Notes: generated by a model from the sequence alone, not told the origin. 64,000 nt of DNA from Acidobacteriota bacterium (GCA_965205505.1 CBDBHB010000009.1:1984001-2048000); one strand, 5' to 3'; shown: positions 10,100-58,571, numbered from the stretch's first letter. Translations and numbers: made by a program.

Positions 10100-10133
10100 T
10101 GAAGCCTATCCGCATCGGGCTTGGCGATCCAAC
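10100..10133 (-). repeat. Motif A copy (promoter-like) upstream of the YjiH gene
   Basis: Minus strand TTGGAT-N18-TAGGCT-TCA. Confidence 0.6.
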
Positions 10134-10159
10134 AACGGGGAGCGGCAGCGAGGTCGGCG

Positions 10160-12577
10160 ATGGACATCTCGAACCTACGTATTTCTTCAAATCGCGGCGC
10201 CTTCAGGGTGCTGGTTCTCTCGATGCTGATCTGCTTGTTGGTGTCGGTGTTGCCGGCGGAGGCACAGTTCAACTTCGGCCTCACGGTGGCGGCGGTGGAG
10301 GGCGAGGTGCTGGTAGGGGAGCCGGGCAATCGCATCGCTCCCGGCTTCGTGTACGTCTACCGCGCCGATGCCGGCGGCTGGCAGGAGGTTCAACGCCTGA
10401 CGCGCTCAGAGGCGACCAACGGCGATGCCTTCGGCCAGGGACTGGTGGCCGACGGCGATCGGCTACTGATCGGCGCCGCGCCGGATGGCCAGGGGACGAT
10501 CTATGTCTTCGAGCGCCGCGGCGCTGGTTGGATCCAGGTCGGGCGGTTCGCAAGCCACGATGGCGAACCGCACGACAGCTTCGGGACGGCCATCGCCGTG
10601 AGCGGCGACGTGGCCCTTGTCGGTGCCGCCGGCAGCGGCGACGACAGCGGAACGGCGTACCTGTACAGCCGTCAGGGTGATGGCTGGCGGCAGCTGCAGG
10701 CGCTCACGCCGGATGACGTCGTCACCGACGTCTCCGACCAGGAGGGCGCGGAGGAAGCCGACGACACTGCAGAGCCGACGGCACGATTCGGCGCTGCGGT
10801 GGCGATCGATGGCGACTGGGCGATGGTCGGTGCCCCGACGGAATCGGGGACCGGGACCGTCTATGCCTTCCGCCGCGAGGAGGAAGGCTGGCAATTCTTC
10901 GACAAGCTGGCGCCGGCCGACGCGGACGAAGAAGCGGGATTCGGCTCAACGGTGGTGTTGTCCGACGGCGTGGCTCTTGTCGGAGAGGTCGGTGCGGACG
11001 GCGGCGGCGCGGTGCACGTCTACGTCTTGGACGACGACGACGGCGGCTGGATCGCCGACAGCGTGCTGCAGCCGTTCGACGGACAATCCGGTGCGGGGTT
11101 CGGCACCGCGATCGCAGTCGGCGACGGCGAGTTGTTGGTAGGTGCGCCCGGTGCCGACGACGACGGCCGTATCTATCGGTTCAGCTACGATGACGAGGGG
11201 ACCTGGACCGGTTCGACCAAGCTGGGCACCTCCTTCTTGGGCTTCCGCGCCGCCTTCGCCTCGGCCCTGGCGGTCAGCGGCGACGTGCTGGTGGCGGGGG
11301 TACCGGAAGATGATCTTGGCGCTGGCTCCGCCGTCATCATGGAGCGCTCCCTTGGTGGTTGGGATCGCACCAGGGTGCTCAGCGAGGCGCTGGCTTTCGA
11401 CCCGGTGGTCGGTGGCGCCGTGGAGTGCGTCGAGGGCATGGCGGGCGTCTTCCCCTGCGACAACTTCGACCTGATCTCGTTTCTGCCCAACCACACGATG
11501 GGTGGCAAGCGTGGCACCTGGGCCAACGACGTCTGGGGCTGGATAGACCCTGACACCGGCCACGAATACGCACTAGTGGGGCTTTCGGGGCGCACGTCAT
11601 TCGTCGACGTGACCGACCCGTACAACCCCGTCTACGTGGGCAACCTGCCGAAGACCGCAGGCTCGCCAGACAGCTACTGGCGCGACATCAAAGTGTACGC
11701 CGACCATGCCTTCATCGTGGCGGATGCCGCCGAGGAGCACGGTGTGCAGGTTTTCGACCTGGCGCGGTTGCGCGAGTACGACGGCACCCCGCTCGTGTTC
11801 AACGCCGACGTCCTCTACGACCGTATCGACAGCGCCCACAACATCGTCATCAACGAGGAGAGCGCCTTCGCATACGTGGTCGGGGCCAGCGGCGGCGGGG
11901 AGACCTGCGGCGGTGGCTTGCACATGATCAACATCGAGGACCCGAAGCAGCCGATCTTCGTCGGTTGCTTCTCCGACGTCAGTACCGGGCGCGCCAGCAC
12001 CGGGTACTCACACGACGCCCAGTGTGTGATCTACGAAGGGCCTGACGAGCAGTACGCGGGCCGTGAGATCTGCTTCGGTTCCAACGAGACGGCGGTCAGC
12101 ATCGCCGACGTCACCAACAAGCGGAACCCGGTGGCGGTGTCGCTGGCGACCTACCCGAATGTCGGCTACACGCACCAGGGTTGGCTAACCGATGATCATC
12201 GCTTCTTCTACATGAACGACGAGCTCGACGAGGCGTCGGGGACGGTCGACGGCACCCGCACACTGATCTTCGACGTGCAGGAGCTCGACGATCCGATACT
12301 GGTGGACGAATACATCCACGACACCGACGCCATCGACCACAACCTCTATATCGTCGGGGATCGGATGTATCAGTCGAATTACAACGCCGGCCTACGGGTG
12401 CTCGACATCAGCGATCCCGAACAACCCGAGATGGCGGGTTACTTCGACACCGTCCCGTGGGACGAGAACGAGGCGCAGTACTCCAGCTTCTCTTGGAGCA
12501 ACTATCCGTTCTTCGACAGCGGTTATGTGCTCATCACCAGCATCCGCGAAGGGCTCTTCATCGTGAAGGAACGCTGA
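10160..12577 (+). CDS. Choice-of-anchor B family protein with N-terminal FG-GAP repeats
   Basis: Repeated FG.A.A..GD..LVGAP units; NDVWGW, WRDIKVY, HDAQCV, HQGWLT and WSNYPFF motifs. Confidence 0.85.
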   Translation: MDISNLRISSNRGAFRVLVLSMLICLLVSVLPAEAQFNFGLTVAAVEGEVLVGEPGNRIAPGFVYVYRADAGGWQEVQRLTRSEATNGDAFGQGLVADGDRLLIGAAPDGQGTIYVFERRGAGWIQVGRFASHDGEPHDSFGTAIAVSGDVALVGAAGSGDDSGTAYLYSRQGDGWRQLQALTPDDVVTDVSDQEGAEEADDTAEPTARFGAAVAIDGDWAMVGAPTESGTGTVYAFRREEEGWQFFDKLAPADADEEAGFGSTVVLSDGVALVGEVGADGGGAVHVYVLDDDDGGWIADSVLQPFDGQSGAGFGTAIAVGDGELLVGAPGADDDGRIYRFSYDDEGTWTGSTKLGTSFLGFRAAFASALAVSGDVLVAGVPEDDLGAGSAVIMERSLGGWDRTRVLSEALAFDPVVGGAVECVEGMAGVFPCDNFDLISFLPNHTMGGKRGTWANDVWGWIDPDTGHEYALVGLSGRTSFVDVTDPYNPVYVGNLPKTAGSPDSYWRDIKVYADHAFIVADAAEEHGVQVFDLARLREYDGTPLVFNADVLYDRIDSAHNIVINEESAFAYVVGASGGGETCGGGLHMINIEDPKQPIFVGCFSDVSTGRASTGYSHDAQCVIYEGPDEQYAGREICFGSNETAVSIADVTNKRNPVAVSLATYPNVGYTHQGWLTDDHRFFYMNDELDEASGTVDGTRTLIFDVQELDDPILVDEYIHDTDAIDHNLYIVGDRMYQSNYNAGLRVLDISDPEQPEMAGYFDTVPWDENEAQYSSFSWSNYPFFDSGYVLITSIREGLFIVKER

Positions 12578-12630
12578 TCGTCGCTAGCAGGCTCGTGGCA
12601 GCAGACCCATCAGAGTCTCACCACAGTTTG

Positions 12631-13965
12631 CTAGGCTACGACCAGCAGGTCCGCCGGGGTCATCGAGAGCCGCCGACAACGATCGGTCTCGTGCACGAAC
12701 GTATCGATCAACGCCGTGCTGCCGGTCGAGTAGCTCTCGTAGTTGAACACCTGGCGCTCCTGGATGATCCAGTCGTTGGTGTCTTCCTCACCAACGCTGA
12801 AGCTCCACCATCCTACCCAGTCGGGCGGGAAGCTGATGCCGAGCTCATAGCCGCCGGTATAGCCGCTGATCTCGCCGCGCTGGCGCATCTGCCACGCACC
12901 GGTCTCTTGATAGAACTCGCGCATGATCTTGGTGAGCTCCTTCAGCGGCATGCCAGCACGAGCGTGATGGGCCAGCGTTTCCATGGCGCGACCGTTCATC
13001 TTGTAGAGGTCGGCCAGCTTCTTGGGCGGGTCGCCGACGAAGAAGCCGCGGGCAGTGTTGGAGTGGTACCGGTTCTTGACGCCACAGATGTCGCAGATCA
13101 CGTGATCGCCCATCTGCACCACACGCGTGGAAGCGATGCCGTGCAGGAACGTCGCGCCGCCTACCTTGATGGATGACAAGAGCCCCGACATCCCGCCTCC
13201 GGCTCGCGTCATCGCCCGTACCATCTCGCCGTAGACCTCGAGCTCGGTGACGCCCGGCTGCAGCGTTTCCATGATCGCCTGCAGACCGATGTCGCAGATC
13301 CGCGCCGCCTCCATCATGACGTCGATCTCGGCGGGCGATTTGTGTAGCCGCACTTCGGCCATGATGTCGGAGCCGTCGACGAGCGGACATCCGCGTGCTT
13401 CGAACACGGTTTCGAGCTGCTTCATGCGCGCCGGTACCGGTCGGTAGCTCCAATACTGCAAGCCGACGGTGCCCTTCAGCCAACCGGCGGCTTCGAGCTC
13501 CATGGCGTGACCTTCATAGGGACGGCCGCCACCGCTCTGCGGACGTCGGATGTCCTCGGCTGCCGACGTGGCCGCCATCAGATCGTCGTGGCTGTCGAAG
13601 TGAATCAGCGTGTCGTGGTCCACGTGCACGGCGCTGATCGAGTTCATGCCCCATGCCTTGGGGCCGTTCTGCTGGAACCAGTTGAGCTCGATGCCGTGCA
13701 GGTAGCACATGTCCTCGGGCATGGTGACGAACAGCATGTCGATATTGTCCTGCGCCATGCGCTCGCGGACGCGATTGAGTCGCCCCTGGTACTCGGCCTT
13801 CGAGAACGGCGGTGGGGGATGCGCGCCGATGGTTGCCCCGGGAGTCGTCCTGTGCGGGGTAAACCCGCCCGCGGCGGCCCTCGCTGAACCGGTAGCGAGC
13901 AGACCCGCGGCGGTGGCGGCCGAGGTCGCCATGAAGTTTCGTCGATTCAACTCCGGATTTTTCAT
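12631..13965 (-). CDS. M24/creatinase-fold hydrolase, ectoine hydrolase (DoeA)-like, with Tat signal
   Basis: NRRNFM Tat motif; PFSKAEYQGRL, KSPAEI and GYELGISFPPDW motifs. Confidence 0.75.
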   Translation of the reverse strand: MKNPELNRRNFMATSAATAAGLLATGSARAAAGGFTPHRTTPGATIGAHPPPPFSKAEYQGRLNRVRERMAQDNIDMLFVTMPEDMCYLHGIELNWFQQNGPKAWGMNSISAVHVDHDTLIHFDSHDDLMAATSAAEDIRRPQSGGGRPYEGHAMELEAAGWLKGTVGLQYWSYRPVPARMKQLETVFEARGCPLVDGSDIMAEVRLHKSPAEIDVMMEAARICDIGLQAIMETLQPGVTELEVYGEMVRAMTRAGGGMSGLLSSIKVGGATFLHGIASTRVVQMGDHVICDICGVKNRYHSNTARGFFVGDPPKKLADLYKMNGRAMETLAHHARAGMPLKELTKIMREFYQETGAWQMRQRGEISGYTGGYELGISFPPDWVGWWSFSVGEEDTNDWIIQERQVFNYESYSTGSTALIDTFVHETDRCRRLSMTPADLLVVA

Positions 13966-37875: not shown

Positions 37876-38149
37876 GGCGACCGGCCACTCGCCTTCCCGG
37901 GCACCGATCATATTGGCGCACCCCTCGCGGGTTGTGCCATTCGTGAGCTACTTACATCCTGAGCGAACAACGACGTGAGATCGGGTATCCCCGATACGAT
38001 TGGGAGACTCACGTCGAGCACAAAGACCCACCAAGTAGCAGCGGCCAATCGACGAGACGGCCGATCAGGCGGTCCTCGGGGTACGCGGAGACGATCCCCT
38101 GGCAGAGCACCGCGACGGCGACCAGAGAATCACACCGATCCCGTTTGCC

Positions 38150-38386: not shown

Positions 38387-38422
38387 GGGCGACACGGAGG
38401 TCGTCCCCGCGCCGCGCCCGCG

Positions 38423-38851: not shown

Positions 38852-38924
38852 GATGTTCTCCTTGTTTGGTATCAGCCGGTTGCTAGAATCGCGCGCGAAT
38901 CCTTGCATCAACAAGAGGTCGCTG

Positions 38925-40079: not shown

Positions 40080-40101
40080 GGCGTAATCCCGCCACGGCCC
40101 G

Positions 40102-40941: not shown

Positions 40942-41023
40942 AGTCGTACCTCCGCGGACGATCCAGCTGCGCCATCGAAACGGATGACGGTCAACAACGC
41001 CCGCCTCAGCAACGACAGCGCGT

Positions 41024-41060
41024 CCTGAAGCCTATCGTCAGAGCGTCCTTGGTTCCAAGG
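41024..41060 (-). repeat. Motif A copy upstream of the hydrolase-M42-NIPSNAP genes
   Basis: Minus strand TTGGAA-N18-TAGGCT. Confidence 0.75.
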
Positions 41061-41108
41061 AGGGTGGCTCGCCAGGGTCGCGTGAAGATCCTGCGGGGTT
41101 GTCGCTTG

Positions 41109-43440: not shown

Positions 43441-43501
43441 GTATTCTCCGAGGCTCGTGCAGTGCCAATGAACGTCATAACGACGGGGGGCGCAAGCGGG
43501 C

Positions 43502-43696
43502 ATGCAGCCGAATCTCGACGTATTTCTGCTGTTCTTCAATGCCGTGCTGAGCGTGGCGCTGGTGGCGGGAGTCGTGGTCGCGATCCTGCGCCGGGAGTAC
43601 CTCCCGGTGATCCGACGCCTGGAGGCTGCCGAGTTGGCGCAGTCCCTCGGGGAGGCAGGGGCCGGGCGCAGCGGAATCGCTGAGGACGACAAGTAG
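43502..43696 (+). CDS. Small single-TM hypothetical protein
   Basis: 64 aa with one hydrophobic helix; stop overlaps the next start (TAGTG). Confidence 0.5.
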   Translation: MQPNLDVFLLFFNAVLSVALVAGVVVAILRREYLPVIRRLEAAELAQSLGEAGAGRSGIAEDDK

Positions 43697-44019
43697 TGGC
43701 GACTACTGTCTTCTTCTTGACGCTGACCATTGACATCATTGTTGGCGCGCGCTCGTCGCGAGACGCGTCAAGAGCAGTGACGATTTCCGTCATGGGTGAG
43801 CGAGCCTCCACGCTCCTCATCGTGGGCACCCTTGCCGCGACTTATCTCAGCGTCGTTACCCTGAGTGCCTCGGCCAGAACCATCCAGACCATCCTTGCCA
43901 GACCCGATGGCTTGGTGGAGCTCCGGCGCGAGTACCGCAGCGTATGCACGATCGCGGCGGTGTTCTTGACGCTCGCCGTGCTGATTTGGGGGTATCTCTT
44001 CGTGAACCTGGGACTCTAG
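43696..44019 (+). CDS. Small membrane hypothetical protein
   Basis: Three hydrophobic segments; coupled to the previous ORF and directly before the BCCT gene. Confidence 0.5.
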   Translation: MATTVFFLTLTIDIIVGARSSRDASRAVTISVMGERASTLLIVGTLAATYLSVVTLSASARTIQTILARPDGLVELRREYRSVCTIAAVFLTLAVLIWGYLFVNLGL

Positions 44020-44053
44020 CAGGGTGCTAAGAAACTCCGCTAAGGAGCAAGCC

Positions 44054-45595
44054 GTGGACCCCAGCGACGGTGCGTCGGCGCCGCAGATCGACCGCGTCAT
44101 GCTCGCGGTCGTGCTGCTGGTCGTCGGCTCCACGTGCATCCCCCTGGGTCTCATGCCGGAGCGGGCGGGTGCCTTCGTCTCCGAGCTCTACGATGGTCTG
44201 ACGAGCAACTTCGGCTTCCTGTACCAGTGGTTTGCCGTCGGCGTGATCGGCTTCTTGGCGTGGCTGGCGTTCGGACGCTTCGGATCGGTGCGTCTGGGGG
44301 CCGAGCACGAGGAACCGGATTTTTCGACGTTCTCCTGGGCTGGCATGTTGTTTTGTGCCGGAACCGGAGCCGCGTTGCTGTCTTGGGGGGCGGTGGAATG
44401 GGTTGCCTATTACAACAACCCACCCTTCGGCGCAGAGCCTCGTTCCGCCGAGGCCCTCAGTTGGGCGACTGCCTATGGTCCGTTCCACTGGGGGGTGGTC
44501 GCGTGGTGTATCTACGCGTTGCCGACGGTGGCGATCGCCTATCCGTTCTACGTCAATCGGGTACCGCATCTATGCGCCAGCACGGCATGTTGCGGGCTGC
44601 TGGGGCCGGACGCGCATCGGAGCCTCTTCGGCCGATTGGTGAACCTCGCCGCCGTACTCGGAATCCTCGGCGGCGCCGGCACCTCGCTGGGCTTCATTGC
44701 CCCCTTGATCGCCGCGACCGTTGCCGAGCTCTTCGGCGTCGCCACCTTGTTCGCCCTGGAGGGTCTCGCGATGGCGATCTGCGTGGCGCTGTTCGGTGCC
44801 AGCGTGTACCTGGGCCTGGAGGCGGGGATCAAGCGGCTCAGCGATTTGAATGTGACGCTGTTCGGGCTTCTTCTGACGTACATCTTCGTCGTCGGGCCGA
44901 CATTGTTCATCCTCAAGCTATCGACCGAGACGCTGGGGTTTATGACGGCGAACTTCGTCCGCATGCTCACCTGGACGGATCCGGTCCGGGATGCCGGCTT
45001 CGTGGAGTCGTGGACCGTTTTCTACTGGGCTTGGTGGATCGCCTTCGCGCCGGTGGTGGGCACCTTCGTGACTCGTATCTCGCGCGGGCGTACGCTTCGT
45101 CAGGTGATTCTGGGGATGACCTGCCTGGGCAGCGCCGGCTGTTGGGTCTTCTTTTTTATTCTGGGCAACTACGCGCTCTTTTTGGAGATTGAGGGCCTCC
45201 TGCCGGTGAGCGACATCCTCGCCGAAGCGGGCATGAGCGTGGCGACGGCCAAGATCCTTGCTTCGCTTCCGGCAGGCACCGTGGCGCTGGCGACCATGGC
45301 CGTGGTGAGCATCGTGTCTGCCGCCACGAGCTATGACTCAGCGTCCTACACGATCGCTGCGACGGTGACCCAGGAGCTCGATGCGGCCGAGAACCCGGGT
45401 CGAGCGCACCGGTTGTTCTGGGCGCTCGTGCTCGGTACGTTGCCGCTGTTCATGCTGTTCGTCGGCGGCCTGCAGATCATACGGCTGGCGGCACTCCTGG
45501 CGTCGTTTCCGATCTTGTTCGCCGGCGTGGCGATGGCCGTGTCGCTGACGAAATCGCTCCGCGCCGACGAACGAGCACCGACGCCGCCGCGGTAG
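44054..45595 (+). CDS. BCCT family transporter
   Basis: SWAGMLFCAG, FHWG, GIKRLS, WTVFYWAWW and RISRGRT motifs; AAGGAG RBS. Confidence 0.93.
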   Translation: MDPSDGASAPQIDRVMLAVVLLVVGSTCIPLGLMPERAGAFVSELYDGLTSNFGFLYQWFAVGVIGFLAWLAFGRFGSVRLGAEHEEPDFSTFSWAGMLFCAGTGAALLSWGAVEWVAYYNNPPFGAEPRSAEALSWATAYGPFHWGVVAWCIYALPTVAIAYPFYVNRVPHLCASTACCGLLGPDAHRSLFGRLVNLAAVLGILGGAGTSLGFIAPLIAATVAELFGVATLFALEGLAMAICVALFGASVYLGLEAGIKRLSDLNVTLFGLLLTYIFVVGPTLFILKLSTETLGFMTANFVRMLTWTDPVRDAGFVESWTVFYWAWWIAFAPVVGTFVTRISRGRTLRQVILGMTCLGSAGCWVFFFILGNYALFLEIEGLLPVSDILAEAGMSVATAKILASLPAGTVALATMAVVSIVSAATSYDSASYTIAATVTQELDAAENPGRAHRLFWALVLGTLPLFMLFVGGLQIIRLAALLASFPILFAGVAMAVSLTKSLRADERAPTPPR

Positions 45596-45617
45596 GCGCG
45601 GCCGGGTCCCGCGAACG

Positions 45618-46466
45618 TCAGAGCTCCATCGCTCGCGTCATGTCGAAGCCGCCATCGATCTTGATATTCTGCCGCACGATATAATCGTTCAGAGGCGACA
45701 CCAGGAACAGAATCAGGTTGGCAATGTCGAGCCCATCGGCGCGCCTCCCTCGTGGGATGCTCTCGGAGATCTGCCGTTCGACATCCCCGACGGAGGCTCC
45801 TTTTACGCTCGCGTACCATTCCAGCTCGTGCTCGCCGATCTGAGTAGCCACCCAGCCTGGCGTGATCGAGTTCACCAGAATGTGCTCCGGCGCGAATTCC
45901 TGGGCAACCGCCTCGGTCATCGACCACAGCGCGGCTTTGCTGGCAATGTAGGCGCCGTAGCCGGCGCCGCCGGTGAACGAAGTCACGACGTTGACGATTC
46001 TGCCGCCCCCGACCTTGCGCATCTCGGGTATCGCGGCGCGCATGGTGTAAAAGGGCCCCTTCGCGTTCACTGCGAAGGTCTTGTCCCATGCCGCCTCGGG
46101 AATCTCTAGAAACGGCCCGGTCCCCACTGTGGTGGCCGCGCAGTTCACCAGAATATCGAGTCGGCCGAACGTATCGACGGTTGCCCGAACGAGTTTCTCG
46201 ACGTCGTCGCGGCGCGTAAGGTCACAGCAAACGGCCAGGGCTCGGTCACCGATCGTTTCGACGAGGTCGTCGAGATGGGCCTTGGATCCGAGCGCCGAGT
46301 TGGCCTCCGGCGTGCGCTCGCCGAGGTCTTCGGCGTAGAGGTGGCAGATGTCGGTGACGACGACCGCTGCGCCTTCCTGCGCCAGCTTGAGAGCCGACGC
46401 CTCGCCCATGCCGCGCGCTCGCCCGCACCCCGTGATCAAGGCAACTTTGTCCTCAAGGATTCCCAT
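45618..46466 (-). CDS. SDR family oxidoreductase
   Basis: ITGCGRARGMG, GRLDILVN, YIASK and IDGG motifs. Confidence 0.9.
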   Translation of the reverse strand: MGILEDKVALITGCGRARGMGEASALKLAQEGAAVVVTDICHLYAEDLGERTPEANSALGSKAHLDDLVETIGDRALAVCCDLTRRDDVEKLVRATVDTFGRLDILVNCAATTVGTGPFLEIPEAAWDKTFAVNAKGPFYTMRAAIPEMRKVGGGRIVNVVTSFTGGAGYGAYIASKAALWSMTEAVAQEFAPEHILVNSITPGWVATQIGEHELEWYASVKGASVGDVERQISESIPRGRRADGLDIANLILFLVSPLNDYIVRQNIKIDGGFDMTRAMEL

Positions 46467-46887
46467 ATCGGTCTGGCCTCCAAGTCGTACAGCAGTGTGC
46501 TGTTGCTATTCTCGGTGCGACTCTGCTGGCAGGTCGCTTCGCCGGGAGACTCGGCTGAGGAAGCTACGGCTCGGTCGGCACGGGCCGTTTCAGTTGGACC
46601 TAGCGAACCAGCCGGGATTCTACTCGCATGGATGCGCGAGCAAAACTGGAAGGTTCACCAGGTAGCCTCAACGGTCACTGTTTGGACTCGACCCCGCCTA
46701 GTGCTCCTGATCATAAGTGCGGTGACGTTTGTGGCGCGCGCGACCGAGGCGAATTGTAGGAGCGGCGACGAGGGCGATGCTGGGTGTATCGTCGAGGCGC
46801 CGCGACGCCCAAGGTGGCCGGTCCCGCGGCCACCCGGAGGGCAGGGGCGGTCTCCCTGTACAGTACGTAGAACGTCGTTCGTGCCGC

Positions 46888-48582
46888 CTATACGCCCTCG
46901 GCCTTGCTGCAACGACGAGGATCGCCGCAGGCAGTCATCGTGCCCGAGCCCGATTCGAAGTGAATTCCTTCGAAGGAACCGTGGTAGAGACTCCAGGGAT
47001 TGATGACATCGAAGTCGATGCCCCGCTGCTCCACGGCCTCGCGGACATGCGCATCATAGTTCTTCTCGATCGTGATGCCGCGGTCGCCGACCGGTCCCCC
47101 GTAGCGCGGACGATTCACCGATTCCTCGATCGGCATCGCGAAGTCCATGATGTTGACGGCGTTCTGGAGCATGCACTGGGAGAGGCTCCGGCTCGGCGAC
47201 CCGCCGGCGAGAAAAGGTGCCCCGTCCTTGAACACGATCATGCCGCCGGGCCCCACGAGCCCGCGCTCGCCCGGACTGCCACCATAAATTCGCAACGAGC
47301 ACAGGTTGACGCCATTCACCCACAGACCGGTTTCGAAAGGAGCCTGGTTAGATGAGTGCACCAGGCAGGCGACGTTTCCTTGTTCGTCCGCCACGGTCAC
47401 GGCGCACGTGTCTTCGGGCAGGGCGCCGAACGACGTGTCTGACGCTAGCTGCCCGGTCTGCAGCTGCTCGAGTCGACGGCGCGCCAGCTCCTCCGGGTCG
47501 AGGTCGCTCGTATCCTGCCTGCGGTAATCGCCTTCGACGATCGTCAAGCTGCGGATCATCTGGTACATGGTCTCCGGCGATTCCGTCGGCGGGCCCTGCG
47601 CCGGGATATCCAGCAACTCCAGAACGTCCAGGGTCTCGGTGATCACCGGCAGGGAGTAGCCGTTGAAGGTGCGGTAGGCGCGCGGCAGCGCGCGAACCTC
47701 GAACCCCCGGTAGGTGCTCGAAGCCACTTCTGCGGTCGTCGCCTCGTAGCGCTCCATATCCTGGCGGGTGACGTTGCGGCCGCCTGCCTGGGAGATTCGG
47801 CAGAACTCCTCGGCAAAGTTGCCCCGGTAGAAGTATTCGTTACCTCGTTCGGCGAGCTGCTCGAGCGTATCCGCGGCCTCCACCTGGTAGAGCATCTCGC
47901 CCGGTTGAGGAATGGCACTGTTGGGCATGTAGATCCTCAGTCCCGCGTCGGAGCGGCCGATCTTCTCGGACTCCATGAAGATCTCTCCCCAGAGGAACGG
48001 ATGGGTCTCGAACCCCTCGCGAGCGTAACGGATGGCCGGGGCCATGAGCTCTTTCTTCGACTTCGTACCGAAACGCGAGAGTGATTCCTCGAAGCCGGCC
48101 CAGAACCCTGGCACACCGACTCCCCCCCATGTATCGGGAGTGCCGTCTGCTTCCTCGGCTCCAAGCGGTACATTGGCACTGCCGTCGACATACATCGTCT
48201 CGCCGCTCGCAGCTTCGTAGTACGTCAACGTCAAGTAGCCAGTAACACCCACCAGGTGCGGCTGGATGACGGTCTGCGTGATGGCGACGCAGAGCGCTGC
48301 GTCGCAGGCGTTGCCGCCGGACTTCAGGACATTGACGGCTTCGCGCGTGGCCAGCGGATGAGAGGTGATCGCCATGCCCGTCCTGCTCTGCGCGGGCGTC
48401 TTGCGACCGAACTGAGCTTCAGCGATGAGCTCCTTCCGCTTCTGGTCACCGATTTCGTATACGCCCTGCAGGGAGGCCGGATCCCGTCTGACGTTTGATT
48501 TCGAGAGACCAAACTCGCCGACTCCCGCTACGGCAGCGCCGGCGAACGCGTTCCTGAGAAAAGCTCTTCGATCGTGCTGCAT
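46888..48582 (-). CDS. Tat-exported gamma-glutamyltransferase family protein
   Basis: DRRAFL Tat motif; GGNACDAA, GVPG, PAIRYAREGF, and DT (nucleophile) followed by DEQGN. Confidence 0.85.
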   Translation of the reverse strand: MQHDRRAFLRNAFAGAAVAGVGEFGLSKSNVRRDPASLQGVYEIGDQKRKELIAEAQFGRKTPAQSRTGMAITSHPLATREAVNVLKSGGNACDAALCVAITQTVIQPHLVGVTGYLTLTYYEAASGETMYVDGSANVPLGAEEADGTPDTWGGVGVPGFWAGFEESLSRFGTKSKKELMAPAIRYAREGFETHPFLWGEIFMESEKIGRSDAGLRIYMPNSAIPQPGEMLYQVEAADTLEQLAERGNEYFYRGNFAEEFCRISQAGGRNVTRQDMERYEATTAEVASSTYRGFEVRALPRAYRTFNGYSLPVITETLDVLELLDIPAQGPPTESPETMYQMIRSLTIVEGDYRRQDTSDLDPEELARRRLEQLQTGQLASDTSFGALPEDTCAVTVADEQGNVACLVHSSNQAPFETGLWVNGVNLCSLRIYGGSPGERGLVGPGGMIVFKDGAPFLAGGSPSRSLSQCMLQNAVNIMDFAMPIEESVNRPRYGGPVGDRGITIEKNYDAHVREAVEQRGIDFDVINPWSLYHGSFEGIHFESGSGTMTACGDPRRCSKAEGV

Positions 48583-48748
48583 CAGCTTTATCCCTCCGGG
48601 CTGGAGATCCTCACTCCGATAGCGCTGATCGAGGTCGGTTGTCTCAGCGTCCCATCAGCATTTCAGGCGGTACTTCCTCTCAACGACTTGGAGAAAGCCC
48701 GCAGCCAATGCTGCACCGACCCCACCGAGCACGAGCGACAAGAACGTC

Positions 48749-48783
48749 TGAAGCTTGTGGCCGCGGGAGGCGAGATCCAACGG
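48749..48783 (-). repeat. Motif A copy (degenerate) upstream of the GGT gene
   Basis: TGAAGC...CGAGATCCAACGG; minus strand TTGGAT-N17-CAAGCT. Confidence 0.65.
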
Positions 48784-48836
48784 GTGGAACCTGACAGCGC
48801 TCCGGCGCGGTTCACGACTACGTGGACACCGACAGT

Positions 48837-50291
48837 CTATCGTCGCGCGTCCTCGCGTGAGGCGCCGAGTCGGGTCGCAAATTTCGTTTTGCGCCACCCC
48901 GAATCACCTACCGCGTTTCGAGCCCGTATACGACATTTGTATCGTGTATCCGCGGTGAGCTCGTCGAGGATCACGCCCTCGACGTTCGCATAGGCTCGCG
49001 CGACGGTGCTCCATTTATCGCCGCTCGGCTTGCATTGCACAGGGTGGAGCACCAGTGGCCTGTAACAGATGATCGTTGCGTATCGTGGTGGCGAAATGGG
49101 TCCGGATGCCAGGCGCGACGACGAGACGATGTTTGCCCATCGTGGAGGAGGAGCAACGCCGCAGACGGGCCGATTTCGCCGCCATCCTGCGGACAGATGG
49201 GCAGTTGCGGGCGATATCGGCGTTGCGCCTCGTCGACGATGCCCACTGCATCGCCTTCCTCGCCGCGCCTTGATCTCACCCGCAAATCCCATCTGCGATA
49301 TGCAACGATCATCTGTTACAGGCCACTGGTTCTTGCTGCTTTCGCGAGCCCAGCGTTCGAGAAGTTCGACGCGCCGCCGAAGGTCGCGACTGAGATCGCC
49401 GATCGATGTGATGTCGGTCAGGGTCATTGGTAGAGAGAACGCTGCCTTGTTGGTCTTCGGGTCCATCAGCTCGAGCAGGCCCGTGAGTGTGTGGCTTCCG
49501 GCTCCGCGGCGCAGGCCATCTTGACGCGTATAGTTCGAGTTTACGGCCTCGACACGGCTCTCTCTCGTGTTCGCCTCGTCTGCACGGTTCTCGAACGAGA
49601 CCCCGGCGGCGCCGCCGTAGTCGGCGACATTCACCACGACGATGTAGTCGGCGATCTGGCGTGTGCGCACCAAGCCGAAGGCGGGCGAGTCGCGTAGTGC
49701 CTTGGCAACCTGCTGCTGGACGACCGCCAGCTCGCCTCGCACCTGCATCAACGTTGACTCCATCGAGGCATTCCGGTCGGTGACGGTCGTGTCCATCGGA
49801 CCGACGAAGACGCGCGGCGCGTTGATACGCTCCGCGAGATCATCCGGCGGGTCTGCTACCTCCCGGAGCTGCACGATCTCCTTGCTCATGTCGCGGCCCG
49901 CCTGATGCGCGAGGATCGTCTGCTCCCAGCAGGTCTCGTAGTCCCCGACGCCGAAGGAGGCGATGCCGGCCATGAAGTAGACATCGGGCACCCCGGGCTG
50001 GCGCTCGTCCGCGGCCAGGAACGCCTCAAGGGCGTCCTTCTCGTCGCCCATCTGGCCGTGCGCCAGGCCCTTCAAGAAGTGTGCCGTCCACAGCGTATCG
50101 TCCGCCTTCAACACATCTTCGAGCAGGTCGAGCGCGTACGCCGGCTCACCCTGATCGATGTACTCTTGGGCCCGCTTGAGTTGCTGCTGTAGCTCTCGTC
50201 CGTCCCCGTCCTGGCGTGCCTGTGCGGGCGCAGCGACGACTAGCGCAACCAGCAGGACGCGGAACAAGGGGATATGGCCACGGTTCCGCAT
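48837..50291 (-). CDS. TPR protein (paralog of 33305-34273) extended through a palindromic element into an FN3-like fragment
   Basis: Homology to the paralog ends at ERWARE (~49343). The frame stays open through 49051-49330 and into WSTV...TRYKCRIRARNAVGDSGW. Confidence 0.7.
   Translation of the reverse strand: MRNRGHIPLFRVLLVALVVAAPAQARQDGDGRELQQQLKRAQEYIDQGEPAYALDLLEDVLKADDTLWTAHFLKGLAHGQMGDEKDALEAFLAADERQPGVPDVYFMAGIASFGVGDYETCWEQTILAHQAGRDMSKEIVQLREVADPPDDLAERINAPRVFVGPMDTTVTDRNASMESTLMQVRGELAVVQQQVAKALRDSPAFGLVRTRQIADYIVVVNVADYGGAAGVSFENRADEANTRESRVEAVNSNYTRQDGLRRGAGSHTLTGLLELMDPKTNKAAFSLPMTLTDITSIGDLSRDLRRRVELLERWARESSKNQWPVTDDRCISQMGFAGEIKARRGRRCSGHRRRGATPISPATAHLSAGWRRNRPVCGVAPPPRWANIVSSSRLASGPISPPRYATIICYRPLVLHPVQCKPSGDKWSTVARAYANVEGVILDELTADTRYKCRIRARNAVGDSGWRKTKFATRLGASREDARR
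49051..49330. mobile_element. 280-bp palindromic MITE-like element
   Basis: 35-bp terminal IR ACCAGTGGCCTGTAACAGATGATCGTTGCRTATCG with 1 mismatch; interior is also imperfectly self-complementary. Confidence 0.85.
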
Positions 50292-50429
50292 CGTCGAGCC
50301 CCTTTGTCTGCGGGCAACCCTTCCCGGGGCCCCCAACGGCGACTAGCCAGAGAACCCTCTCACGATGCCTGCCACAACATCAACGGGACAAGGGTGGTCG
50401 GTGTTCTCGGGAGCACGCAACGCGATTCG

Positions 50430-50519
50430 GTAGCCGAAATCACCCTGAGTTGGAATCGGATCATCCAGGAAGAACGGGCTCGGCTCGCGGGACTCGGCTG
50501 AAGACGCTACAGATCCAAT
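50430..50519 (+). repeat. Motif B core plus peptide tail, followed by a shortened motif A
   Basis: GTAGCCGAAATCACCCTGAGTTGGAATCGGAT closely matches 56044-56075; followed by TGAAG...AGATCCAA. Confidence 0.7.
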
Positions 50520-50532
50520 AGCACGAGCTGCT

Positions 50533-51375
50533 TCAGCTCGTCGGCTTGGTGAACTTCAGCAGGTAGCGATCGGTGTCGTAGCGGCCGTCATAGGTGCCCT
50601 CCTCGAAGCCGGAGGTGCTACGGTCGTCCGCTGGGTTTGCCAGCATGGCGGAGCGCCCCGACAGCTCAAAGCCCCCGGCGGTGAACTCGTCGATTACGGT
50701 CTGCTCGTTGAGGCGATGCGTCTCGGGGTCCCATCCCGGCTTGTCGCTGGCTGCCTCGACGATGCCCACGACTCCACCGGGCTTTAGGGCTCGGTGCATC
50801 TCGGCCACCGCCTCGGGGCGCGAGGGGCCCGGGACGGTCCCGAGGTCGTGGTAGTTGCGCACCGCGACCATCACGTCGACGCTGCCCGATTTCATATCCG
50901 TAAGCTTGTCGATTAGCTCGACGTTGCTCAGACCATGGTCCTGGATACGCTGCTTCAAGCCTTCCCTGGTGGAGTAGTCGGTGTCTAGACCAAAGAAACC
51001 CAGGACACTCAACACGTGCCCGTCAGCACCCATCAGGCGTGACATCAAGTGAGTGTTGTAACCCTCGGCAGGCCATAGATCCGCAACCGTCATGCCCGGC
51101 TGCATGCCCAGCCACTGGTAGACATCGATCGCTTTGCGGTCACTATCCTCGGTGCGCTCGGCATCGGGGCGCGCAGGGTCATCGAGAACGGACCGATCTA
51201 GCTGCGTCACGATCGAATCTTGTGGCAACGCCGAGGCAGTCTCTTCCGAGGCTATTGGCTCGGTTTCCGGGCTACAGGCGATCATCGTTGCCGCCACTCC
51301 CACGAGCAGCGAGAACACGTGCGTATCTCCGACTACGCCGCGACGGTTACCCTTGAACAGATTCGCTTGTCTCAC
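50533..51375 (-). CDS. Class I SAM-dependent methyltransferase-like exported protein
   Basis: PARPDAER..D..RK, QPGMTVADL, RNYHD, ALKPGG and LANPADD motifs; AAAGGAG RBS. Confidence 0.8.
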   Translation of the reverse strand: MRQANLFKGNRRGVVGDTHVFSLLVGVAATMIACSPETEPIASEETASALPQDSIVTQLDRSVLDDPARPDAERTEDSDRKAIDVYQWLGMQPGMTVADLWPAEGYNTHLMSRLMGADGHVLSVLGFFGLDTDYSTREGLKQRIQDHGLSNVELIDKLTDMKSGSVDVMVAVRNYHDLGTVPGPSRPEAVAEMHRALKPGGVVGIVEAASDKPGWDPETHRLNEQTVIDEFTAGGFELSGRSAMLANPADDRSTSGFEEGTYDGRYDTDRYLLKFTKPTS

Positions 51376-51445
51376 CGTTGATCTCCTTTTCACCGGGGAA
51401 GGTCACTAACTTCGACTCTGTTGAGTCAAGGGCGATACATCACCA

Positions 51446-51509
51446 TGGCGCCACCACAGGGATGGGTGAGCGCGTGAAGCCTATCGCCGGAGCGTGCGAG
51501 ATCCAACGG
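51446..51509 (-). repeat. Motif A copy with adjacent TGGCGCCACCA core, upstream of the methyltransferase gene
   Basis: Minus strand TTGGAT-N17-TAGGCT; GGTGAGCGCGTGAAGC shared with 58415-58430. Confidence 0.8.
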
Positions 51510-51891
51510 GGCCCCGGAGCAGAATACCTGTGCGCTGACCGTACGGACGATGTCAGGAAATCGTCGGAATACCCGTGGCGACTCGGACCTCAGCCCTGCT
51601 TGCCGAGTAGCATGGGCGTCTACGCGTGCCGCCCCCTCGGGCGACTGATGGAGGTCGAATGAAGGGATTCAGCCGCCTGATCACGATCGCGTCGACTTCG
51701 CCTCGGATGGCAAGGAGACGAAGCGTGTGGCTCGCGCGATGATGCGAATGGTGGCGGCCATCAACGACGAGTTGTTGCCGCCCAGCCAAGGGGGGAGGGC
51801 CGGTGCTCGTGAAATCGGCGTCGAGCTCATCTAGGATCACCGGTCGTGGCTCCCATCAATCTCGACCCAGCATCAGAGGGGCCCTTCATAG

Positions 51892-51914
51892 GTGTCATAG
51901 CTGTCGTATGACAC
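51892..51914. promoter_or_regulatory. Candidate operator (8-7-8 inverted repeat)
   Basis: GTGTCATA-N7-TATGACAC ends 22 nt before the transporter start codon. Confidence 0.5.
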
Positions 51915-51936
51915 AAAACAGGTCAAGGAGCCGAGC

Positions 51937-53361
51937 ATGACGGCTGCCAAGCAGGTCATCGAGCCGGATATGACTCCCGTCCAAAAGTTAGGTGAGGCGA
52001 TCGCCGACCGGGTAGAGCGGTGGATGCCGAGCCCGTTCCTCTTCGCGATCCTCCTGACCTACGTCGCCGCGGGCGCCGCATTTATCTCGGAAGGGTCGGC
52101 AGTGACCGAGATCGCCCTGTCATGGTACGGAGGCTTCTGGGCCCTACTGCAGTTCGCGATGCAGATGGTGATCATCCTCGTGACGGCCAATGTGGTGGCG
52201 TATCACCCACGGGTGAGGGGTGTGATCCTAAGCCTCGTTCGGATTCCCAAGAATGGTCGGCAGGCCGTCGTTCTGGTAGGCGTGGGATCGATGCTGACCG
52301 GATGGATCTCCTGGGGTTTGGGGCTCATCTTCGGAGGGATCATGGCCCGCGAGATGGGCAAGCACGCCGCCCGAAAGGGGATGGCTGCGCACTATCCGTT
52401 GTTGGCCGTGGCGGGCTACATGGGGATGAGCCTCACGTGGGGATGGGGGCTGTCCAGTTCCGCCGGTCTCCTTCAAGCGACCGAGGGAAACGCGCTGATG
52501 CAGATGGGCTTCGTCGATCGCGTGATCCCCTCGACGGAGTGGGTGTTCCACCGCTATCCGCTGATTCTCACAGCGCTGTCGATCATCTTCTGCTCGATCA
52601 TGCTGTATCTGCTGAGCCCGCCCGATCAGAACTGCAGGCCGATCGGGTATTACGTGGACGACGACGGTGGGGATGCTCAACCGGAGAGGACCCCGGCCGC
52701 GCAAAAGGAAACCGCCGGCGCCGCCAAGCCTGCGATAGCCGACAGGATCGACAACAGCAGGATCCTCGGGGGCGTCCTCGCGTTAACCGGTGTCGTGCTG
52801 TTTCTGAGGCAGTTCTTCACGCAAGGCCTCGGGGCGCTGGACCTGAATAACTTCAACTTCGGGTTCCTGATGATCGGGCTCTTGCTCTACGCCAGTCCCA
52901 CCAAGTACCTGCGCGAGTTCTACGACGCCGTTCAGGGGAGCGCGGGAGTCGTCCTGCTCTTCCCGTTCTACGCTGGCATCATCGGAATCATGACCGGGAC
53001 GGGGCTGGTCGATACGATGACCGCCTCGCTGCTCTCGATCGCCACACCGGAGAACTTCGCGGTGACCGCCTGGATCACCGGTGGGGTCCTCAATATCTTC
53101 GTGCCGTCAGCCGGAGGTGAGTGGGCGATCATCGGCGGCCCCATGATGGTGGCCGGTGCCGAGTTGGGTATCCCTCACGGCCAAACGATCGCCGCCTACG
53201 CGGTCGGGGACGCACACACGAACCTCCTCAACCCGTTTTGGGCGATCCCGCTGCTGGCCATCACCGGCCTCCGTGCTCGGGACATGTTCGGCTACGCGAT
53301 CACCATGATGATCTTGCTCGTCCCATTTCTGGCGATCGTGCTCTACGTTCTGCCCTACTGA
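51937..53361 (+). CDS. atoE: Short-chain fatty acid transporter (AtoE family)
   Basis: RWMPSPFLFAILLT, LLQFAMQM, FPFYAGI, FVPSAGGEW and PFWAIPLL motifs. Confidence 0.85.
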   Translation: MTAAKQVIEPDMTPVQKLGEAIADRVERWMPSPFLFAILLTYVAAGAAFISEGSAVTEIALSWYGGFWALLQFAMQMVIILVTANVVAYHPRVRGVILSLVRIPKNGRQAVVLVGVGSMLTGWISWGLGLIFGGIMAREMGKHAARKGMAAHYPLLAVAGYMGMSLTWGWGLSSSAGLLQATEGNALMQMGFVDRVIPSTEWVFHRYPLILTALSIIFCSIMLYLLSPPDQNCRPIGYYVDDDGGDAQPERTPAAQKETAGAAKPAIADRIDNSRILGGVLALTGVVLFLRQFFTQGLGALDLNNFNFGFLMIGLLLYASPTKYLREFYDAVQGSAGVVLLFPFYAGIIGIMTGTGLVDTMTASLLSIATPENFAVTAWITGGVLNIFVPSAGGEWAIIGGPMMVAGAELGIPHGQTIAAYAVGDAHTNLLNPFWAIPLLAITGLRARDMFGYAITMMILLVPFLAIVLYVLPY

Positions 53362-53595
53362 GATCCGCGCGTAGGAGGCACCATGTGTTACATGGCGGCA
53401 TTCGTCGACCAGGCGTACTCGTCGTGACGGCTTGGGGCATCCCGGCGGCGGCGCTTGCTCAGACTGGAATCTACGAGCTCGTCTCCAATTGGCCGAATGT
53501 TCCCTCCGGAATGTTCTTCGGGTCAGGTGAGGGTTGGCCAGATCGGAACCTCTTCATTCTAAAGAAGTACCGAGGGAGGGACGACTGAACGATAG

Positions 53596-55896
<2,301 letters not shown>

Positions 55897-55967
55897 TCAT
55901 TGCGGTCGCCTAGACATGTTCTACACACGTGTGTAGCTTGCCTAGGAGTCCAATGCGGCTGGACGGG

Positions 55968-56184
55968 GCCTATCATCAGAGTCACGAGATCCAACGGAGA
56001 GGGCAGGGGATACCCTAGGGCGCAGCACCCCAGAAGGGAGGAAGTAGCCCCAATCACCCCGAGTTGGAACCGGATTCAGGAAGAACTCAGGAGCCTGGAT
56101 CGGTTCTCCGCCTGATTCGGAGGCTGCCAGTGGGGGGTGGGCCAGCGCTTGAAGCCTATTGTTAGCGCCGGCACGAACCAACGG
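55968..56184. repeat. Motif A - motif B - motif A cluster
   Basis: CGAGATCCAACGGAGAGGGCAGGG (55985-56008) is identical to 58447-58470; GTAGCCCCAAT at 56044; TGAAGCCTAT at 56150. Confidence 0.8.
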
Positions 56185-56259
56185 TAGGCGTAGCGGAGTG
56201 GGCCTCCCCCGATTTCCCGGACACCTTTGGAAGTCCGATAATGGGCTCGGAGGTGAAGC

Positions 56260-56553
56260 ATGGGGTCACGACGGCGGTACAGTCGCGAGTTCAAGATTGA
56301 GGCAGTGAGGATGGTGACGCAGCTGGGCCATCCGGTGTCTGAGGTGGCCCGGGATCTGGGTGTTGGCCGCGGCATGTTGACCAAGTGGCGCAAACAGCTC
56401 CAGGAGCAGGGGGTCACGGCGTTTCCGGGCGCGGGGAAGATGCCCGACCAGGACCTGGACGGGCAACAGCTACGGCGGGACGTGCGGCGAGTACGGCAGG
56501 AGCGCGACATTCTAAAAAAAGCGTTGGCGATCTTCTCGGAACGCCCGCGATGA
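56260..56553 (+). CDS. IS3 transposase OrfA
   Basis: RRRYSREFKIEAV...VARDLGV HTH and ERDILKKA. Confidence 0.9.
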   Translation: MGSRRRYSREFKIEAVRMVTQLGHPVSEVARDLGVGRGMLTKWRKQLQEQGVTAFPGAGKMPDQDLDGQQLRRDVRRVRQERDILKKALAIFSERPR

Positions 56554-57545
56554 AGTACCCGATCATCAAGCAACTGTCCGGCAAGTTCCCGGTGCGGCGG
56601 TTGTGCAAGATGCTCGAGGTGTCTCACGGCGGTTACTACGAGTGGCGAGGAAGGGGGCCGAGCCCGAGAGCGCGAGAAGATCGCCGTCTACGTGTGCAGA
56701 TCAGAGCTGCATTCCGAGAGAGCCGCGACCGTTACGGAAGTCCGCGCATCCACAAGCAACTTCGGCAACGAGGGATCCGCTGCTCTCGCAAGCGGGTAGC
56801 TCGGCTGATGCGCCAGGAAGGACTTCGAGCTCGCCAACCCCGTCGGTTCCGGGTGACAACACGGCCCACACCTGGCCGGTCAGCGGCGCCCAACGTGCTG
56901 GCACGGCGCTTCACGGTGGATGCCGTGGACAGCGTCTGGGTGGGCGACCTGACATACCTGTGGACGCAGGAAGGATGGCTATACCTGGCCGTGCTGATGG
57001 ATCTGTGCTCGCGACGGATCATCGGCTGGGCGGTGAGCGAGACGATGACGGACGATTTGACGCTGGCGGTCCTGGATCAGGCCTTGGAGCAACGCCGTCC
57101 CGGTTCCGGAGTGCTCCATCACAGCGACCGCGACAGCCAGTACAGCAGCGACGATTACCTAGACAAGCTGCGTGACCGTGGCTTCACCATCAGCATGAGC
57201 AGGAAAGGAGACTGCTGGGATAACGCGCCGATGGAGAGTTTCTTCTCTACCCTGAAGTTCCAACTCGGTGGCTGCTTCAGTTCCCGGGCGGCGGCCCGAG
57301 CCGAGTTGTTCCACTACATCGAAGTGTTCTACAACCGGGCTCGCATGCACACCTGGATCGGAGACCAGAGTCCGGCTCAGTTCGAGGCGGCAATGCGGCG
57401 GCCAGGCCAGAGCGGCCAATCAGCTGTGGAAGCTGACGCGCCCGTGGAAATCGACTCCCGATTTCCACCGTCGCTTGGACAACGCTCCGCGTTGCCAACA
57501 GCTCCCACAGCCGCTAATACGACTACGACAATGGATCTTAACTAA
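56550..57545 (+). CDS. IS3 transposase OrfB (DDE)
   Basis: YGSPRI, WVGDLTY, HHSDR and CWDNAPMESFF motifs; ATGA overlap with orfA. Confidence 0.92.
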   Translation: MKYPIIKQLSGKFPVRRLCKMLEVSHGGYYEWRGRGPSPRAREDRRLRVQIRAAFRESRDRYGSPRIHKQLRQRGIRCSRKRVARLMRQEGLRARQPRRFRVTTRPTPGRSAAPNVLARRFTVDAVDSVWVGDLTYLWTQEGWLYLAVLMDLCSRRIIGWAVSETMTDDLTLAVLDQALEQRRPGSGVLHHSDRDSQYSSDDYLDKLRDRGFTISMSRKGDCWDNAPMESFFSTLKFQLGGCFSSRAAARAELFHYIEVFYNRARMHTWIGDQSPAQFEAAMRRPGQSGQSAVEADAPVEIDSRFPPSLGQRSALPTAPTAANTTTTMDLN

Positions 57546-57686
57546 GTGTCCGGGAAAGCGGGGCAAGGTCAAAGTGGCGACGTGCCCGTTTTCGCGTCAG
57601 GAACACCGATGACCTAGTCTTGTGATGTTGTCGTCTCGTTTGCCCGTCCAGCCAAGTTCGAGGGAGGCCACACTGTGAGGAGCCTG

Positions 57687-58184
57687 ATGCCAAAACGCCT
57701 GACCGTGTTGCAGGTAGCGCTGATCCTGATCGGCTCGGCCGCAAGCGCTCACGCCCAAACCGAGTCGCGGGATCCGTTGATCGGCACCTGGACACTCAAC
57801 GCCGAGAAGTCGGTCTTTGGCGGCAACGCGCCTCCGCCGACCAGCCTGACGAGGACGTTCGACTACACCAAAGACGGGCTGATGCTCGTGACGCTCGAGA
57901 CCGTGAACGCCCGTGGCCGCTCATTTCTGCACTGGTACTTGGGCTTCGACGGCAAGGAGTACCCGGAGTATTCAAGGGAATCCGGGGCGAAGCCGACATA
58001 CTGGCTCTCGGCTAAGGTGATCGATCCCTACACGAAGGAGGTGATAGATCGCGTTGCGGACCAAGACGAGCCATTCCTGATGATCACCTTTGCCGTCTCG
58101 AAAGACGGTGAGACCATGACGATGACGTACAAGGACATGGATGGTACGCCCGGCAACGTTGTCGTGTACGACAAGGTGTTCTAG
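57687..58184 (+). CDS. Secreted hypothetical protein (beta-barrel-like)
   Basis: Signal peptide; DPLIGTWTLNAEKS, FDGKEYP and VVVYDK motifs. Confidence 0.7.
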   Translation: MPKRLTVLQVALILIGSAASAHAQTESRDPLIGTWTLNAEKSVFGGNAPPPTSLTRTFDYTKDGLMLVTLETVNARGRSFLHWYLGFDGKEYPEYSRESGAKPTYWLSAKVIDPYTKEVIDRVADQDEPFLMITFAVSKDGETMTMTYKDMDGTPGNVVVYDKVF

Positions 58185-58190
58185 GTAGCC

Positions 58191-58391
58191 TCAATGCGGT
58201 CCCGCGCCATGGACGGCTGCGATGTGTGGATGGTTCAGGGCTGCGGCAGCGCGAGCCTCCTGCTCGAAACGAGCGAGGCGCTCGGGGTCAGAGGCGAACT
58301 CGGCGGGCAGCACCTTGATGGCCACCTTGCGGCCCAGGCGCGTGTCCTGCGCCAGGTACACCTCGCCCATGCCGCCAGCACCGAGCTGCTC
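58191..58391 (-). pseudogene. N-terminal fragment of a Ser/Thr protein kinase
   Basis: [27 protein letters not shown]...[17 protein letters not shown] followed by a stop. Confidence 0.9.
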
Positions 58392-58393
58392 GG

Positions 58394-58571
58394 TGGCGCT
58401 ACCAGGGAGGGTTAGGTGAGCGCGTGAAGCGTATCGTCAGAGACGGCGAGATCCAACGGAGAGGGCAGGGAAGGCGCAGGTGGGGCGTTGCGAAAAAGAG
58501 GTAGTAGCCCCAATGGCGAGGATGTTGAACACCACATGCAGTACGTGGCGCGCCTCGCGAGGGTCGGCTGA
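58394..58571. repeat. Inverted core - motif A - motif B unit
   Basis: TGGCGCTACCA (58394), motif A (58425-58470), then GTAGCCCCAAT (58504) with a tail. Confidence 0.8.

Follow-up and report, generated by a model that had tools for sequence, protein, structure and literature searches.

What placed a short, promoter-like repeat at the junctions between unrelated genes is the question raised by this locus of an acidobacterial genome. The window, meaning the whole stretch of 64,000 nucleotides (nt) under analysis, corresponds to C9:1984001-2048000 of a 5.98-Mb, 9-contig, 64% G+C assembly (G000) of an Acidobacteriota bacterium. A first-pass annotation, made from the sequence alone, listed about nine intergenic copies of the repeat in this window and proposed an integron-like array, in which a unit of promoter plus recombination site (Pc/attI) had acquired cargo genes through repeated site-specific capture. 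The analysis described here points to another origin. The repeat is probably the control region at the 5' end of PD40-type Ser/Thr kinase genes, which form a genus-specific family, and the dispersed promoters and leaders are best read as relics of kinase-gene turnover, which came to be reused in front of unrelated genes and to act as crossover points, rather than as an integron-like array.

Anatomy of the repeat

Read along the minus strand, the copies have the sequence CCGTTGGATCTCG...CGATAGGCTTCA, i.e., TTGGAT-17 nt-TAGGCT, the geometry that the first-pass annotation had described. This promoter-like box is the first part of a longer unit, in which it is followed by a leader of ~30 nt with a predicted hairpin and then by the first codons of a kinase gene. 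The best-kept copies run into ATG GAA CCC GGC ACC..., the kinase codons (MEPGTKLGPYEI...) extending for varying lengths among the copies, and the translated start after the leader is the glycine-loop beginning of a Ser/Thr kinase. Intact members of the family are 418-903 amino acids long and carry a Pkinase domain, with PD40 repeats as well in one of the two that were scanned. Sequence conservation begins at the -35 box and spans the whole 46 nt, while shared flanks upstream of it are rare (comparing the 57 flanks all against all gave 26 hits). The two hexamers are 17 nt apart, and the -10 box has A in second and T in sixth place; from position and geometry we infer that the box may act as a promoter.

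The two ends of the leader can pair, with GGCGCT at its start and AGCGCC right before the ATG. A terminal hairpin, which is a structure prediction, was obtained for 25 of the 36 leaders that keep the ATG, with a median of -10.3 kcal/mol. The leader also accounts for the TGGCGCYACCA motif at 51446 and 58394, which the first-pass annotation had placed between promoter and cargo as a recombination core. The motif is present at both sites, but it consists of the 3' arm of the hairpin plus the kinase ATG, read on the opposite strand.

Copies in the window and in the genome

In the window, an 18-nt half of the motif was matched with at most three mismatches at 37856, 41026, 51475, 56150 and 58425, all five on a single strand, against a chance expectation of 0.03; five sites were reached in none of 100 shuffles. 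The other half, CGAGATCCAACGG, was matched exactly at 48771, 51497, 55985 and 58447. The shared orientation of the window copies is thus as first reported, and the identical 22-, 24- and 16-nt blocks between distant copies are likewise seen in the copy sequences. The count of about nine needs revision: five copies are strong and three are degenerate or truncated, while the one at 50499 belongs to another element, the kinase 3' end described below. At P-51475, the strongest copy, leader hairpin and ATG are retained to ~51440, beyond which the sequence is unrelated. The copy at 48749 keeps the -35 half only and is missing from the list of profile matches.

That profile, an nhmmer model of the box built from 33 copies, detected 57 copies in the genome at E<0.01, of which 29 lie on the plus and 28 on the minus strand of contigs C7, C8 and C9; none was detected on the six small contigs. 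The first-pass annotation had itself named copies scattered genome-wide on both strands as the sign of something other than a local co-oriented array, and this is what the scan found. Nor is the clustering special to this island, since equally dense clusters occur elsewhere, e.g., six copies in C9:1403-1420 kb.

A more stringent pattern gave 32 hits in G000 and was positive in all four congeneric species (G001-G004, with 4, 11, 8 and 51 hits); it gave no hit in the 36 searched genomes that belong to other genera, families and orders. Exact matches in public records were to metagenome-assembled genomes of Acidobacteriota.

Kinase 5' stubs and probable loss of the kinase bodies

In a BLAST search with one intact kinase gene and its flanks, 41 box-containing copies begin at reference positions 391-430, at or just upstream of the -35 box, whereas homology to the reference ends anywhere from position 446 to 3499. 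The blastn identities range from 75 to 94% over 46-370 nt. The junctions between repeat and cargo are spread over reference positions 446 to 1124, and the sequences beyond them are unalike, except in two pairs that are duplicated and in two others where the kinase simply runs on. A conserved recombination site at a fixed cassette boundary was looked for and not found, the junctions varying from 446 to 1124 in these copies.

The genome contains 36 Pkinase matches. After a box there are six full PF00069 domains, one partial domain (167 of 263 positions) and three short pieces; the remaining boxes are followed by kinase stubs of 0 to ~100 codons and then by unrelated sequence. In the stub headed by P-58425 (58201-58395), codons 1-12 have been lost, the frame is stopped 59 codons on, and the partial PF00069 match contains one TGA.

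The pattern of substitutions bears on where such stubs come from. Among 20 copies, roughly classed by length of the open reading frame (ORF), 66 of 122 differences in the stubs and 34 of 62 in the intact genes fall on third codon positions. The shares are alike, which argues that the stubs descend from several distinct, once-functional kinases and not from one neutrally evolving master copy.

Tandem kinase arrays are found at C9:1431-1440 kb and C9:2054937 of G000, in which only the first gene has a box; the later genes start ~16 nt past the preceding stop and have none.

Kinase 3' stubs and box-to-stub units

The other end of the kinase gene is dispersed as well. Its last ~15 codons (...NWFDELKRLVPTDP, stop) with ~20 nt of 3' flank are present in 42 copies in the genome (blastn), and these stubs end fairly sharply, either just past the stop codon or ~20 nt on. 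Among 31 3'-end copies with the canonical stop, 15 close frames of fewer than 60 codons and only three close frames of at least 300. In the window, the stub at 58556-58636 has 210 open codons ahead of its stop, and the degenerate one at 46543-46593 sits in a 379-nt segment whose counterpart in G004 measures 34 nt.

Boxes and 3' stubs are associated. A 3' stub on the same strand lies within 5 kb downstream of 18 of the 57 boxes, whereas 2000 random trials gave 0.96 on average and never more than 6, and in 12 of these 18 pairs the kinase domain is absent in between. The clearest such unit of the window runs from box, leader and ATG through a methyltransferase gene to 40 nt of the kinase 3' end. 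The region 49914-51503 is spanned by contigs with 0-4 differences in four DNA runs from four studies, so that the junctions of this unit are no artefact of the present assembly. In a second unit, the gamma-glutamyltranspeptidase gene has a box on one side and a 3' stub on the other, each degenerate and each in a segment absent from G004, the closest relative, where the gene itself is syntenic.

Two further observations concern the 3' flank. At C8:1092509, C8:607117, C9:1141084 and C9:2792094 of G000, it continues into a further ~60 nt common to the four sites (...TTCGATTCCGCTCGTCCGTGATGCCAGG...), and this extension resembles a diverged variant of the promoter box. The words TTGGATC and CTTCA are, by eye, common to box and 3' stub, a likeness that raised the thought of paired recombination sites.

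Genes behind the boxes

For most boxes an unrelated gene follows at a distance of 0-300 nt, and each cargo has a box copy to itself, instead of one promoter serving an array. When 26 downstream ORFs were scanned, 23 matched non-kinase Pfam families and none matched Pkinase; a PD40 protein among the 23 may be the C-terminal part of the kinase family itself. Among the families are amidohydrolase, alpha/beta hydrolase, two gamma-glutamyltranspeptidases, methyltransferase, Rieske oxygenase, periplasmic binding protein, M24 and M23 peptidases, sodium:solute symporter, cupin, YceI, a glucose/sorbosone dehydrogenase (GSDH)-cytochrome c fusion, 2-hydroxyacid and zinc dehydrogenases, cytochrome c and two sulfatases. 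The earlier statement that the copies precede genes of unrelated function is borne out by these families.

Comparison between species

Comparison with the four congeners bears on the age of the box junctions. The junction between box and GSDH gene is common to G000, G002, G003 and G004, and the boxes at 10100, 37856 and 41026 are present at syntenic places in G004. The copy at the cytochrome c gene occurs in three species and not in two, and one cargo gene is present in G000 alone. Ahead of one 2-hydroxyacid dehydrogenase gene a deletion series can be read, in which G003 has the box and 792 nt of kinase, G000 the box and 165 nt, and G004 neither.

Homology between species often stops at the upstream edge of the box; a test for synteny breaks at the motif had been proposed in the first-pass annotation. 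The loci where it halts at or near this edge are 37856, 48749 and, for G002 and G003, the GSDH locus. From position 1 to 48589 the window is syntenic with G004; the synteny stops 7 nt before the start codon of the gamma-glutamyltranspeptidase gene, and there is no box there in G004.

G004 contains two 3.2-kb segments of 99.8% identity, in which the -35 half of the box differs while everything from the -10 box on is the same, which indicates exchange inside the repeat. The two segments may represent two loci, or two strains in that assembly. A crossover inside the repeat in copies otherwise 99.8% identical would be as expected for homologous recombination. In the four DNA runs, contigs break at the repeats. 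A joint from 58395 to 51463 was considered as a structural variant and rejected, because one of its sides is only 22-37 nt long and the joint is a link between repeats. Contigs of six RNA runs contained 5-9% of the sampled words.

Probable relics of kinase-gene turnover

The kinase family has evidently undergone massive turnover, with 57 5' ends and 42 3' ends in the genome against six full kinase domains linked to a promoter. A course of events can be proposed in which kinase bodies are deleted or replaced stepwise while promoter and leader remain. The leftover promoter and leader would then drive whatever gene is downstream, i.e., promoter capture, and homologous recombination between the dispersed relics of 45-300 nt would reshuffle their flanks. 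Such recombination would account both for the copies at module junctions and for the breaks in synteny. Transcription would start ~7 nt past TAGGCT, so that the mRNA would open with the predicted hairpin, which in turn might bury a GGAG-like ribosome-binding site. As to the ancestral arrangement, the box-like extension of the 3' flank hints that it may have been a head-to-tail array of kinase units.

Several points weigh against this account. As a promoter, the box matches the E. coli sigma-70 hexamers (TTGACA/TATAAT) at 6 of 12 positions, and a scan with the E. coli consensus calls no promoter site in 36000-55999. Orphan boxes that face nothing or the 3' end of a convergent gene (55968, 56150 and C9:712413) indicate that not every copy is a working promoter. 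The leader hairpin reaches a median z of only -1.07 against mononucleotide shuffles, and its variants contain mismatches and wobble pairs with no compensatory changes. The 57 boxes outnumber all 36 kinase domains of the genome, so that decay requires many lost kinases, and the sharp upstream edge of the box would also suit the end of a defined element. The deletion series and the crossover were each seen once. Finally, no clean empty site was found among the relatives, because the genomes are heavily rearranged; for L026, a unit of promoter and cargo found only in G000, the flanks lie on different replicons there.

A bolder form of the recombination model is rather doubtful. The 5' and 3' ends of the kinase would then form an expression shell, i.e., paired homology arms at about 50 loci between which genes are captured or swapped by homologous recombination. 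If this is true, the shell would supply each captured gene with a ready-made promoter, with a structured leader and with a 3' end, the gene would join one co-regulated set, and the whole would be a counterpart, needing no recombinase, of a gene-cassette system.

Alternative explanations

It is improbable that the box is not a promoter but a transcribed RNA leader or a regulon-wide regulator-binding site, with transcription coming from further upstream. The weak sigma-70 match would suit such a role, as would the conservation of all 46 nt rather than of just two hexamers and the predicted structure of the leader that follows. However, nothing upstream is conserved, so each copy would need a separate promoter; the leader shows no covariation; and Rfam 15 gave no match at the gathering score in the whole window and none at E up to 5 in 48000-59000. 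The kinase coding stubs, moreover, indicate common descent of the copies and not convergence on a binding site.

A non-autonomous mobile cassette is distinctly improbable. In this explanation the box and the kinase 3' stub with its flank would form the left and the right end, respectively, of an element, comparable to a mobile insertion cassette or to one of the miniature inverted-repeat transposable elements (MITEs), that is moved in trans with the gene it encloses. The sharp edges of boxes and 3' stubs, the 12 units without a kinase domain inside and the excess of box copies over kinases would all fit. However, terminal inverted repeats joining the two ends, flanking direct repeats and target duplications were absent from all three units examined, and the inner junctions differ at nearly every copy. 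Substitutions in the stubs fit diverse functional genes and not one master copy, some junctions are common to four species, and one locus shows stepwise deletion.

Highly improbable, in the end, is the integron-like Pc/attI unit with cargo from repeated site-specific capture in a co-oriented array. In its favour are the common orientation of the window copies, the place of several of them at module junctions and a tyrosine-recombinase ORF at a distance of 260 nt from the last element. Against it, the 57 copies are spread over three contigs and both strands, the supposed core is one arm of the leader hairpin together with the kinase ATG, the junctions with the cargo fall at differing positions, and the recombinase is not IntI, with 59.7 bits against a cutoff of 265 for the integron integrase TIGR02249 and a location in a segment missing from all four relatives.

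Other features of the window

The features of the window are collected in Table 1. The first-pass annotation had seen no intact recombinase here; there is one tyrosine-recombinase ORF, at 58895-60100 on the plus strand. It was rejected as an integron integrase or Xer protein, its scores being far below the thresholds (NF011946, 39.6 bits against a cutoff of 435), and nothing was found in the analysis that ties it to the repeat. The first ~100 residues of this ORF match GrpB. From 59211 to the end of the window no homolog exists in G001-G004, and the four ORFs scanned in that part belong to no Pfam family. A strain-specific insertion into a GrpB-like gene probably accounts for the region 58895-64000. 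A tRNA-Val (GAC) of 83 nt called by ARAGORN at 61152-61234 is probably false, as Rfam finds no tRNA in the window at the gathering score and the T-loop is absent, and the idea of a tRNA-linked island was dropped with it.

The insertion sequence of the IS3 family that abuts P-56150 lies outside the repeat family. Its transposase ORF spans 56385-57545, and many copies of 99% identity occur in G002 and G004, which suggests that it was active very recently or was transferred between species. Another repeat, of ~277 nt at 49050-49330, has dozens of copies of 78-98% identity in G002, G003 and G004; it lies within the ORF 48837-50336, and contigs of all four DNA runs break there. G004 is without 1.9 kb of the prolyl-oligopeptidase gene (34412-36341) and 781 nt inside the M20 peptidase gene (41451-42232); both genes are intact in G000, and the segments are present in G002 and G003.

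Table 1. Coordinates of the promoter-like boxes (P), kinase stubs and neighbouring genes in the 64,000-nt window
Feature	Position	Strand	Evidence
Gate-domain membrane protein gene, downstream of P-10100	9269-10003	-	Pfam
P-10100: diverged P copy with start of leader	10093-10138	-	nhmmer E=0.021 (match 10110-10093)
Amidohydrolase gene, immediately downstream of P-37856	36503-37837	-	Pfam
P-37856: P copy, divergent -35 half, with first ~17 nt of leader	37850-37887	-	nhmmer E=3.7e-7
Alpha/beta-hydrolase gene, downstream of P-41026	40102-40941	-	Pfam
P-41026: P copy, promoter box only, 84 nt upstream of alpha/beta-hydrolase gene	41024-41062	-	nhmmer E=1.6e-8
Degenerate kinase 3' stub, downstream of gamma-glutamyltranspeptidase gene	46543-46593	-	alignment
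Gamma-glutamyltranspeptidase gene, ~167 nt downstream of degenerate P-48749	46888-48582	-	
P-48749: degenerate P, -35 half exact, -10 box lost	48749-48783	-	sequence match
Kinase 3' stub: last ~13 codons (~40 nt), stop and conserved flank (the copy at 50499)	50486-50543	-	blastn, alignment
Methyltransferase gene (cargo) with own ribosome-binding site, between P and kinase 3' stub	50533-51393	-	Pfam Methyltransf_11/31
P-51475: promoter-like box P, strongest window copy	51467-51510	-	nhmmer E=1.4e-12
P-55968: truncated P (-35 and -10 boxes, ends after TAGGC), orphan	55968-55999	-	nhmmer E=1.7
P-56150: P copy with leader, without ATG, orphan, aims at katG 3' end	56144-56186	-	nhmmer E=2e-4
IS3-family insertion sequence, abuts upstream edge of P-56150	56192-57578	+	Pfam rve/HTH_21
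Kinase 5' stub	58201-58395	-	blastn, 92% identity to reference kinase positions 503-697
P-58425: P copy with leader, heads kinase stub	58417-58460	-	nhmmer E=6.9e-10
Kinase 3' stub, belonging to the kinase remnant next upstream; lies 96 nt upstream of P-58425	58556-58636	-	blastn
Tyrosine-recombinase ORF, N-terminal part matches GrpB	58895-60100	+	PF00589 E=7.8e-29

Significance and comparison with known systems

The reuse of bacterial promoters is known mostly from isolated pairs whose origin is not visible. Here the origin would be readable as a family of kinase paralogs, with the attached coding stubs marking each event of reuse, and a single genome has one promoter family ahead of at least 26 unrelated genes. 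Should the box be active, a sizeable number of secreted hydrolases, oxidoreductases and transporters come under one control signal in an abundant, uncultured acidobacterial genus, and the relics would also serve as the main recombination seams of the genome. The family thus offers a countable system for asking how often, and by what route, promoter capture occurs.

In integrons, the Pc/attI platform provides a promoter upstream of cargo genes of unrelated function. In contrast to it, the present family has no IntI and no conserved site at the cassette ends, each cargo has its own box, and the copies lie on both strands. Correia elements and ERIC are miniature transposons that bear promoters, i.e., short dispersed repeats with promoter-like hexamers beside genes. 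The box is likewise a short dispersed repeat whose promoter-like hexamers adjoin genes, but neither terminal inverted repeats nor target duplications were found in three units, the right end is variable, and the origin appears to be the 5' region of a protein-coding gene.

No description of this family was found in the literature on acidobacterial kinase paralogs with PD40 and on mobile promoters. Putative mobile promoters are similar upstream sequences found before unrelated genes in one genome, with an unknown mechanism of mobilisation (Nijveen, Matus-Garcia and van Passel 2012, PMC3575422). They were surveyed at a threshold of at least 80% identity over at least 50 nt and occurred mostly as pairs, and promoters reaching into coding sequence were filtered out (PMC3575422). 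By that measure the box family is alike, with blastn identities of 75-94% over 46-370 nt and with differing non-kinase Pfam families in 23 of 26 ORFs downstream; it is unlike those pairs in having 57 copies, an identifiable parent gene, retained coding stubs and a matching family of 3' stubs.

Promoter capture by rearrangement, as cited in that survey, is exemplified by aerobic citrate utilisation in E. coli and by ldh in Lactococcus (PMC3575422). As far as the survey relates these cases, a resident promoter gained a different gene after rearrangement, which is the likeness to the kinase relics; the cases cited there are single events, whereas the same promoter family would have been captured dozens of times in this one genus. 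In conclusion, putative mobile promoters are the closest described class, from which the present case differs in its scale, its readable parent gene and its 3' stubs.

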